From an uncultured Bacilli bacterium (GTDB lineage: Bacteria; Bacillota_I; Bacilli_A; RF39; UBA660), in contig CATKYP010000001.1 of NCBI GenBank assembly GCA_949840855.1, forward strand, positions 1-30,345: a DNA stretch of 30,345 nt, given 5' to 3'. A program made the position numbers and the translations under genes. Within the stretch, counting starts at the first letter, position 1, and each line of letters begins with the position of its first letter. Under the pieces are notes generated by a model. The model was not told the origin of the DNA. It did not search any database and worked only from the letters and a program-made list of their open reading frames with translations. This document shows, in pieces, positions 16,934-19,900 of this stretch.

Positions 16934-19900
16934 ATGAAAAGATTAAGTCATTATACTATAGTTTTTGTGATGCTATTTTTTATATCAATAAATACAGTTT
17001 TTGCAAAAACAAGTATCGGAGCAAGTCTAGCTTCAAATACAAAAGAATTAAAAATTGGACAAGAATTAACAGTTACACTAAAACTAGACAATTATGTAGA
17101 AATAGAAAAAGGAGTTAATGCCTATAAAGCAACCTTAGATTATGATAAAAATATATTCGAAGAAGTATACATTGATAACTTTACAAATCTAAATAAATGG
17201 GAACAATTAGAATATAATAGAAAAACTGGTGAATTTGTTGCGATTAAAAAAGCAGGAAGTAAGACTCCAGAAAATGTAGTAAAAATAACTCTTAAGGTAA
17301 AAGATACCTCTTATTATGGTAAGACTAATATAAAATTAAAAGATATAACAACATCAGAAGGAAAAAGAGACTTAAAAATTGATGACAAAATTATATCAGT
17401 TGATATTGTAAAAGAACAAACATCTATTCCTAATAACAACCAAGGAAGTGGGACAACTAATCAACCTGCTTCTAAAGTACCAACAGTTAAAAGAAAATAT
17501 GGAGTAATTATAGTAAATAAAAACAATGAAAGTAATGATAATATTATAGAAGATCCTAATATAAGTGAAGAAAAAGACTCAACTACAAATGATGATGAGG
17601 TTTTAGAATATTATAGAGATAAAGTAGAAGATGAAAGGGAAATAGAACACACAAAGTCAACATATATTTGGGCCTTTCTAGTTATTGTAATTGAAATAAT
17701 TTTCTTTATTATTTTCCTAATCTGGAAAAGACAAAAAGATGATGAAGATGACAATAAAGATGATAACAATAAAAGAAACAAAAAAATTGCTATTTTAGTA
17801 GTTACTTCAATTATATTAATGCAATTCTGTGGAACAGTATTTGCAGCATCATACGATTTTTCAAAAAAAGGAGAAGTAAATGGAGACTCTAAGATAGACT
17901 ATGAAGATGTAAGATTAATTGAACTACATTTAATTCATTCAAGAAACTTACTAGATGAATATTTAGAAAATGGAGATATTAATAGTGATGGAAAAATAAC
18001 AGTTACAGATCTTACTCTTCTAGTTCAAAAATTAGAGAAAAGTCTAGACTATAATGTAATTTTATCAAATAGTAATCTAGATAATTACTATCCAAATAAA
18101 AATAATGATATAACCCTAAAATTTATTGGTGAAGTAGATTATGGAGCTTTAATTGAAAAAGTAGTAATAAATAATAAAGAATATAATGTAGAAAAAAGTA
18201 AAGACAAAACAAATGAATACCTACTAAAAGTAAATACAGGAGATTTAGCAGGTATTAAAGAATATAACTTTACAGAAGTATTATTAGATAATGAAAAAAG
18301 AGTAAAAGTAGATTATTCAATAAAAGTAGACGTATTAAAAGAAGTGCCAACTATTGAAAACTACAAAATATCAGAAAACTCTAAAGAATCTAAAATAAAT
18401 ATAGCATTTGATGTTTTAGATAAAGATAACAGTATAACTTCAGCTATCATAAAAATAACAGATGAAAACTCTAAAGTTATAAAAGAAAAAGAAATCAAAA
18501 AAGGCGCTAATAAAATAGAAGTAGATGTAGATGATGAGAAAAAATATAAAGCTAATATTATCATTTCTTATGACTTAGCAACTAACACTTTAGATAAAGA
18601 AGAAAATCATACAGGAAATATTTATGCTGAAAAAGACTTACAATTAATAATAAATTATGATTTTAAATTAACAAACATAAAAACATATAAAAATAATATA
18701 GAAAATCAAACATTTGAAAAAGAAGAAAAAATAGAGCTTAGATTTGATAGTACTAATATAACTAAATTTATCCCTGTAACAGCAAAAATTAATGGAAAAA
18801 ATTACAATATAGAAAAACGTGATAATACATATATAGTACTAGTAGATGGACTAAATAAATTATCATCTCAAAAAATTGAAGTAGAAGAAGTAATATTAAA
18901 TAATGGAAAGAAATTTGCAATTAAAGAAAATAATTCTGTATCTGTAAATATAATAAAAAGATATCCAACAGTAAAAGATATAATCTTAAATGAAAATATA
19001 GAAAATAATAATATGACAGTAAAATTTAACTTAGAAAATAAAGATGATGCTATAAAAAATGCCCATATTATATTATACAATGCTGAAGGGGTAGAATTAG
19101 ATAGAAAAGAATTAACTAAAGAAGAACTAAAAAACAAAGGAGATATTACAAAAATACTAACTACTAAAATAACTTCTAGTTATAAAGTTAAACTTATCAC
19201 TACTATAAATCAAACAGGAGAAGATAAGGATGACCAGCCTAACAAAATATTATTTGAAGAAGCTACTAAAGCTTCACCTAGAACAAAAATTACTAAAATA
19301 AGTGTAAATAAAGAATATGTAGAAAAAGCAGAAAAAGTTACTTTAACTTATAATATAGAAAGTAATAAACTAGAAAATATTACAAAAATACGTGTTAATG
19401 ATTTGGATTGTATTGCTACTAAAAAAGATAAAAATACATATGAAGTAACACTTGAAGTAGGAGATAAAAGTGGTATATATAAGCTTACTACTACAAAATT
19501 AGTATATAGTGATAATGTAGAAGATAATGTAAAAGAAGAAGTAAAGATAGATATCTTAAAAGATAAACCAGTAGTTAAAAACTTCAAGCAAACAGATAAT
19601 ACTAACGACTCAGAAGTAACAATAAGTTTTGACTTAGAAGATAATGATAACAGCTTTATATCTGGAAAAGCAATTTTAACAGATGGAGTTAAAACAGTAG
19701 AAAAAGAGCTTAAAAAGGGAGCGAATACCTTAAAATTTACTGTAGAAAATGCAAAAGAATACACTTTAGAATTAAAAGCTACCTATGACAGAGATAGTAA
19801 TACACTAGAAGGAAAACCAGAAAACGATAACTTAATAAATAATGAAGTATTAGAAACTAAAAAAATTGTATTAATATCAGATTATAAATTACAACTTGAT

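Follow-up and report, generated by a model that had tools for sequence, protein, structure and literature searches.

How a very large secreted protease is kept at the surface of the cell that makes it, and why both halves of a cohesin–dockerin pair should be encoded within it, are questions raised by one gene on a 30,345-nt stretch of DNA (the window) from an uncultured gut bacterium with a reduced genome. The window, about 25% GC, comes from contig 1 of a metagenome-assembled genome (MAG; 1.32 Mb, 291 contigs, 86% complete). The gene (nt 16934–26152, + strand) specifies, in one uninterrupted frame, the precursor of a 3072-amino-acid (aa) surface metalloprotease of the M26 family. The first ~370 codons, the head of the protein (aa 1–369, nt 16934–18040), would act as an integral surface anchor, so that one reading frame in effect encodes two secreted proteins. 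We consider it probable that the precursor is cleaved within the head and that the released protease docks back onto its own anchored N-terminal fragment.

Parts and folds of the head

The features recognised in the initial annotation (signal peptide, cohesin-like domain, linker, transmembrane (TM) segments, intervening loop and dockerin) are all present in the sequence, and Pfam agrees with the domain calls. Signal peptide 1 (aa 1–24, nt 16934–17005, + strand as for all parts of the gene) has a K/R n-region, a hydrophobic core, V at −3 and A at −1, and ends at a predicted cut site NTVFA↓K. The domain that follows (aa 27–158, nt 17012–17407) is a cohesin by every measure applied. Pfam matched PF00963 at aa 35–155 with 33.8 bits against a curated cut-off of 24.1 (37.4 bits in the genome scan), and AlphaFold2 modelled aa 27–158 as a nine-strand jelly-roll β-sandwich with a predicted local distance difference test score (pLDDT) of 97–98. 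A Foldseek search of the PDB placed Clostridium perfringens cohesins on top, the single modules 2jh2 and 2vo8 giving template-modelling scores of 0.79–0.80 (E = 5e-9). Of the C. perfringens matches, which also included 2w1n, 2jh2 and 2w1n belong to NagJ and 2vo8 to a GH33 sialidase; dozens of cellulosomal cohesins came next.

Beyond the cohesin lies a polar, disordered linker of ~80 aa (from aa 159, nt 17408–17638; pLDDT 42–53) rich in E, N, K, T and D. It leads to the heptapeptide EIEHTKS (aa 236–242, nt 17639–17659), which occupies the same columns of the head alignment (A1, 91 sequences) as the LPXTG motif of homologues and is regarded as its relic. The first transmembrane segment (TM1; aa 244–264, nt 17663–17725) is, by hydropathy, a putative stop-transfer anchor of the cohesin fragment, and the AlphaFold2 model has a helix at aa 244–271 that covers it. 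The loop between the two membrane segments (aa 265–284, nt 17726–17785), predicted to be cytoplasmic, consists of KRQK, an acidic middle and KRNKK. Judged by its sequence, this loop matches a sorting signal's charged tail joined to the n-region of a signal peptide, with positive charges flanking both TM1 and TM2. TM2 (aa 285–304, nt 17786–17845) ends in CGTVFA, with a predicted cut at TVFA↓ASYDFSKK. The eight residues ASYDFSKK then separate it from a type I dockerin (aa 313–367, nt 17870–18034), which scored 34.8 bits with PF00404 against a curated cut-off of 22.9 (39.6 bits in the scan of its own genome). Both calcium loops proposed for this domain are intact, namely EVNGDSKIDYED (with E at position 1) and DINSDGKITVTD, as judged by D or N at positions 1, 3, 5 and 12. 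The A1 profile matches solved dockerins such as 4fl4_A and 1ohz_B, and the modelled domain has a pLDDT of 94–98.

A hydropathy scan of the whole protein detected three hydrophobic segments only, signal peptide 1, TM1 and TM2, and neither an LPXTG-type sorting signal nor an SLH domain was found by motif scan or Pfam anywhere in the 3072 aa; the reported lack of LPXTG, SLH and a C-terminal transmembrane segment is thus borne out. Since both domains exceed the curated Pfam thresholds and the order of the parts recurs in 91 clusters of homologues, a chance origin of the head is, on sequence grounds, excluded.

TM2 had been noted as resembling a second, internal signal peptide, and its anatomy agrees: the positive n-region KRNKK precedes a core of 14–15 residues, with G at −5, V at −3 and A at −1. 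In 101 of the 102 sequences of the family a predicted cut site lies 1–8 residues (median 5) ahead of the dockerin and combines a small residue at −1 (A in 66, S in 28, G in 7) with an allowed residue at −3; the one exception did not pass the dockerin-motif screen. The c-region of TM2 (..GTxxA) aligns with the N-terminal signal peptide (..FGVIYA↓NNFASKGELN) of a set of related proteases (P0092–P0102) whose sequence opens with a signal peptide and goes straight on to the dockerin, with no cohesin half in frame. By this alignment, TM2 is homologous to the genuine N-terminal signal peptides of these split proteases. The MAG has a gene for signal peptidase I.

AlphaFold2 modelling of aa 1–400 with alignment A1 gave a mean pLDDT of 81 and a predicted template-modelling score (pTM) of 0.72, compared with a pTM of 0.57 for aa 1–311, which lacks the dockerin (alignment A2). 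As 89 additional free-floating residues should lower the pTM, its rise suggests, indirectly, that AlphaFold2 gives the dockerin a set position within the model. The models are suggestive of a dockerin positioned relative to the remainder of the head, of which the cohesin is the largest rigid body.

Fused and split relatives, and the fate of the sortase motif

A homologue search with aa 1–400 returned 102 clusters, 91 of which (P0001–P0091) carry the full head; Pfam detected the dockerin in all 91 and the cohesin in 70. When 1.84 billion representatives at 50% identity were searched exhaustively, an E-value limit of 1e-30 gave 64 proteins and one of 1e-10 gave 344. The mean column identity of the head alignment is 31%. 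The second dockerin repeat is nearly invariant, as are cohesin residues N62, Y64, N95, F101, S141, G143 and D146. The closest relative (P0002/L009), from an independent mouse-gut MAG labelled 'Bacilli', is 84% identical with the same layout. A paralogue lies in the window's own MAG, on contig C105, where it is truncated by the contig end; it is 100% identical to the 3428-aa protein P0042, has the same head, and shares 57% identity with the window protein in the cohesin, 66% in the dockerin and 40% overall. At least one member of the family, P0090, bears the head on a non-protease cargo (DUF4874/DUF4832).

Genomic contexts were compared at 80 loci from species-level genomes, with taxa as labelled by the submitters. 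A scan with hidden Markov models (HMMs) found the fused arrangement at ~45 loci and split arrangements at ~30. The concern that the fusion might be peculiar to one assembly, with the halves elsewhere forming separate neighbouring genes, is answered on both counts: it recurs in the 91 clusters, in ~45 species-level genomes and in the paralogue, and separate adjacent genes exist as well. One fused head (L034) is on an 11-kb contig labelled Muribaculaceae, from a Bacteroidia bin, while all others are in Firmicutes; this placement is probably a binning error rather than a transfer.

At the split loci, which are from Clostridia species, a secreted cohesin adaptor of 310–330 aa is always encoded immediately upstream of the gene for the signal peptide–dockerin–M26 protein. 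Locus L008 provides an example: its upstream product is a secreted protein of 313 aa with a cohesin 50% identical to that of the window protein over 160 aa and with the near-invariant residues kept, and it also has a divergent C-terminal dockerin. A further secreted protein of 239 aa, also encoded upstream of the protease at this locus, contains a probable cohesin (17.9 bits, below the 24.1 cut-off; E = 2e-10 with the family HMM) and ends in LPKAG, a transmembrane segment and a charged tail. A third gene specifying a probable cohesin with an LPKAG sorting signal is likewise found at L040. Because the two halves exist as split adjacent genes and their fusion is common, the modules are regarded as cognate partners. 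The three-gene cohesin/cohesin/dockerin–protease cassette of L008 (L008:5479-20167, Clostridia) lies beside three serine recombinase genes and is flanked by the two pieces (146 and 123 aa) of a broken polysaccharide deacetylase gene, so that it is apparently carried by a mobile element that has inserted there.

The initial annotation had the cohesin and dockerin flanking the hairpin in place of a sortase motif. For the window protein this is correct in that only the decayed relic IEHTK (within EIEHTKS) stands at the motif position; the hydrophobic segment and KRQK tail are kept, and the protein does not qualify as a sortase substrate. It does not hold for the family, as a canonical [LIVFM]PxTG (LPQTG, LPYTG, LPKTG and others) just precedes TM1 in 30 of the 91 homologues, with xPxTG-like variants at the same junction in ~10 more. 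In the LPXTG-bearing proteins, TM1 and a K/R-rich stretch directly follow the motif and make up a complete sorting signal, and after sortase processing the cohesin and the protease would necessarily be separate polypeptides. Because the motif stands before TM1 in so many homologues, the ancestral module is taken to have been a sortase-anchored cohesin fused to a signal peptide–dockerin–protease. In the lineage of the window protein (Bacilli and 'Tenericutes' by label) the motif has decayed, and TM1 must therefore be the anchor.

Among the 80 loci, an LPXTG-type motif is kept in 20 of 23 fused genes labelled 'Clostridia' and is missing from all 12 fused 'Bacilli' genes and from all eight in MAGs labelled 'Tenericutes' or 'Firmicutes' or left unclassified. 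As these genomes are related, the absence may represent a single loss. In a tree restricted to the cohesin and dockerin columns, unrooted so that the direction of change is inferred, LPXTG is scattered over deep branches and the window protein falls within a motif-less group of 41 members; well-supported branches of this tree force at least three changes of motif state. In the motif-less clade the former LPXTG position is not random but a conserved K-[IV]-K-K-T-[ST] (KIKKT[ST] in the nearest clade of the window protein, EIEHTKS in the protein itself), and the retained Thr and Lys run suggests a new constraint, for example a protease site, contact with the wall or teichoic acid, or an unusual sortase motif. 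A wall-less, Mollicutes-like host was rejected as the cause of the loss: the MAG encodes sortases, five penicillin-binding proteins, MraY and proteins with C-terminal sorting signals.

A profile scan of the MAG detected two cohesins and two dockerins and no more: each of the two paralogous M26 proteases has one of either kind, and none lies outside these proteins in the 86% of the genome that is represented. It follows from this census that the only partners available to each cohesin are the dockerins of the two proteases. A complex of the cellulosome or mucinolysome type, with a multi-cohesin scaffoldin and many dockerin enzymes, was considered and rejected, there being two single cohesins and two dockerins in the MAG. 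Thirty related genomes (0.8–2.3 Mb) have 0–4 dockerins and 0–3 cohesins each, nearly always adjacent or in one frame. A second, conserved cohesin–dockerin arrangement is present in other genomes of the genus (G005:C16:17357-24169, G010:C12:24120-30931, G006:C5:53471-54091). In it, a protein of ~2175 aa carries a dockerin at its C-terminus and, as seen in G005 and G010, a cohesin at its N-terminus; the protein directly after it, of ~550 aa, begins with a cohesin. The window's own MAG yielded no such arrangement.

Proposed cleavage and re-docking, and other readings of the hairpin

In the proposed mechanism the cohesin would be exported by signal peptide 1, TM1 would halt transfer with the K/R-rich loop remaining in the cytoplasm, and TM2, as a second, internal signal peptide, would restart export of the dockerin together with the ~2,770 residues of stalk and protease. 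Cohesin and dockerin would both lie on the outer face of this two-helix hairpin. Signal peptidase I would then cleave after TVFA (aa 304), and the membrane-anchored cohesin, on its flexible tether of ~80 residues, would hold the freed dockerin–protease non-covalently, presumably in a calcium-dependent manner. In the Clostridia-labelled relatives the cohesin fragment, ending in LPXTG, a transmembrane segment and a charged tail, would be fixed to the wall by sortase. We infer the topology, the cleavage at aa 304 and the binding of cohesin to dockerin from the features described above.

Some observations weigh against cleavage followed by re-docking. If TM2 were left uncut, the enzyme would likewise stay attached to the cell, and re-docking would in principle not be needed. 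The conserved KIKKT[ST] relic of the motif-less clade hints at some other constraint, and the sortase motif is missing from the window protein even though the genome has sortases and ordinary substrates carrying VPNTG, LPQTG and VPNTN. The incompleteness of the MAG also means that more dockerin or cohesin genes could be missing. The first of these points leads to a reading in which TM1 and TM2 are both permanent and the cohesin–dockerin pair forms an intramolecular clasp, or cross-links neighbouring molecules or paralogues into a surface lattice. AlphaFold2 draws TM2 as one long helix (aa 277–311) running into the dockerin, nothing forces the two halves apart in a motif-less clade without sortase processing, and the heads of the two paralogues are similar enough for cross-binding to be plausible. 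The proportions of TM2 are nevertheless those of a signal peptide, with its short core, helix-breaking G and small −3/−1 residues conserved in the family, and its homology to true N-terminal signal peptides points the same way. A permanent hairpin would also leave the dockerin eight residues from the membrane while the cohesin sits at the end of an 80-residue tether, and in the LPXTG-bearing relatives the cohesin goes to the wall, beyond the reach of a membrane-pinned dockerin. On balance an uncleaved hairpin, though the main rival, is unlikely.

Still less probable is that the modules serve other partners, the cohesin recruiting other dockerin enzymes and the dockerin plugging into another scaffoldin in the style of cellulosomes or the Limousia mucinolysome. 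Such exchange is the usual logic of cohesin–dockerin systems, and among the split-gene relatives there is indeed an adaptor bearing a divergent second dockerin, along with a separate cohesin that is probably an anchoring one. Against it stands the census, which, though not absolute at the completeness of this genome, leaves no dockerin or cohesin beyond the two proteases, as do the low numbers and the adjacency of these modules in the related small genomes. The capture of other dockerin proteins by the cohesin, raised in the initial annotation, is for the same reason unlikely, as the only two dockerins in the MAG sit on the two paralogous proteases. Fragmentation of the MAG into 291 contigs brings to mind a chimeric assembly or a missed frameshift fusing two genes, an origin that can be set aside almost entirely: the frame is uninterrupted, the 84%-identical protein comes from an independent assembly, and the fusion is widespread in the family. 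Cleavage and re-docking accordingly remains the reading that we prefer.

Comparison with known systems and genomic setting

M26 proteases (IgA1 protease, ZmpB, ZmpC) are colonisation and virulence factors, and the self-docking layout may explain how members of this family are retained at the surface. Downstream of the dockerin, the window protein has a stalk of diverged repeat modules (nt ~18035–20400, approximate limits read from the sequence) in which the Pfam scan matched no family. The M26 protease region (nt 20402–24040) comprises Peptidase_M26_N (PF05342, 113 bits) with a GLUG β-helix, and then the catalytic domain, with the zinc motif HEALH at aa 2082–2086 (nt 23177–23191) and a downstream Glu ligand, E2106; Peptidase_M26_C is among the precomputed domains. 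The catalytic region matches structures of the pneumococcal IgA1 protease (6xja, 6xjb, 7jgj) with E = 1e-38 across ~1000 aa. Beyond the usual Zmp C-terminus there is an extension of ~700 aa (nt 24040–26152) with more GLUG-like repeats. Orthology to ZmpA, ZmpB, ZmpC or ZmpD was ruled out, since NCBIfam scores were 47–141 bits against cut-offs of 3000, and the protein is only a distant relative of these enzymes.

The N-terminus of streptococcal Zmp proteins consists of a signal peptide, LPXTG, two transmembrane segments plus a second presumed signal-peptidase site, and the secretion model based on this anchor is a proposal (PMC3518915). As the initial annotation supposed, the hairpin of the window protein has its parts in the same order, including the second signal-peptidase-type site, and the catalytic region is homologous to that of the streptococcal and Gemella ZmpA–D enzymes (Peptidase_M26_N, GLUG, HExxH...E). 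The window protein differs in having a cohesin of ~130 aa between the signal peptide and TM1 and a dockerin directly after TM2, neither of which is reported for streptococcal M26 enzymes, and in lacking LPXTG and a G5 domain while possessing the 700-aa C-terminal extension. We propose, tentatively and at somewhat less than even confidence, that the head is a 'one gene, two secreted proteins' device produced by in-frame fusion of an anchoring-scaffoldin gene with the gene of a client protease, and that it may preserve in readable form the ancestor of the N-terminal LPXTG–TM–TM anchor found in streptococcal IgA1 and Zmp proteases. In that case signal peptidase would cut the streptococcal enzymes, too, at their second site, and an anchored N-terminal fragment of their own would retain them. 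The family displays the logic of such an anchor as recognisable modules (anchored socket, internal signal peptide, plug) and offers three natural versions for comparison: fused with a sortase motif, fused without one, and split into adjacent genes.

Sortase-anchored scaffoldins are also known, an example being ScaE of Ruminococcus flavefaciens. The N-terminal fragment of the LPXTG-bearing homologues has the build of a ScaE-type scaffoldin (signal peptide, cohesin, linker, LPXTG, transmembrane segment, charged tail); the difference is the in-frame fusion to the client enzyme and, in the window protein, the loss of the sortase motif. Single cohesins and dockerins likewise assemble host-directed enzymes in the toxin and glycosidase complexes of C. 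perfringens (NagJ cohesin 2jh2, 2ozn), whose cohesin structures are nearest to that of the window protein, and in Limousia. The mucinolysome of the latter is a non-cellulosomal cohesin–dockerin system with dockerin-bearing peptidases and an LPxTG-anchored scaffoldin, and its description makes no mention of M26 or transmembrane segments (PMC12997984). In these two systems separate proteins, multi-cohesin scaffoldins and many dockerin enzymes are involved, whereas the window protein is a socket and plug in one precursor with a membrane hairpin between them, each protease having one pair.

Literature searches found no paper that combines a cohesin, a dockerin and an M26 protease. Dockerin was not found in the top-ranked literature on IgA protease, ZmpB or zinc metalloproteases, and a search for cohesin–dockerin with metalloprotease and LPXTG gave only a dockerin census of R. 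flavefaciens. The layout is real and conserved, and the literature searched apparently contains no description of it; we see in it a variation on the streptococcal Zmp anchor and on non-cellulosomal cohesin–dockerin display rather than a new principle. What the window adds is the motif-less, membrane-anchored form, its occurrence in a gut bacterium with a reduced genome, and a strict census of two sockets and two plugs. Cohesin–dockerin pairing would here be a minimal one-to-one tether for enzymes that cut host proteins, in uncultured gut bacteria with reduced genomes from mice, rabbits and humans, and a single gene would thus offer a compact natural means of releasable surface display.

The protease gene has its own promoter and ribosome-binding site (nt 16876–16926, + strand, read from the sequence). 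The promoter is near consensus (TTGACA, nt 16876–16881; 17-nt spacer; TATAAT, nt 16899–16904), and a strong Shine–Dalgarno sequence (GGTGGGGG, nt 16919–16926) lies 7 nt ahead of the ATG. Upstream, a terminator-like hairpin and T-run, ending near nt 16806, follow an ABC permease gene. Directly 3′ of the protease gene is a P-type cation ATPase (E1-E2, Cation_ATPase_N/C; possibly of the Ca2+ type) at nt 26341–28974 (+ strand), and its adjacency to the gene of a presumably calcium-dependent dockerin protease is probably a coincidence. An IS3-like transposase (HTH and rve integrase core; nt 29237–30250, − strand) is found at the end of the contig and may be the reason for the assembly break there. 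Elsewhere in the window, a 631-aa ORF (open reading frame; nt 7870–9765, + strand) matched no Pfam family at E ≤ 1e-5; its divergent neighbour is a protein-kinase-like ORF of 245 aa (nt 7021–7758, − strand).

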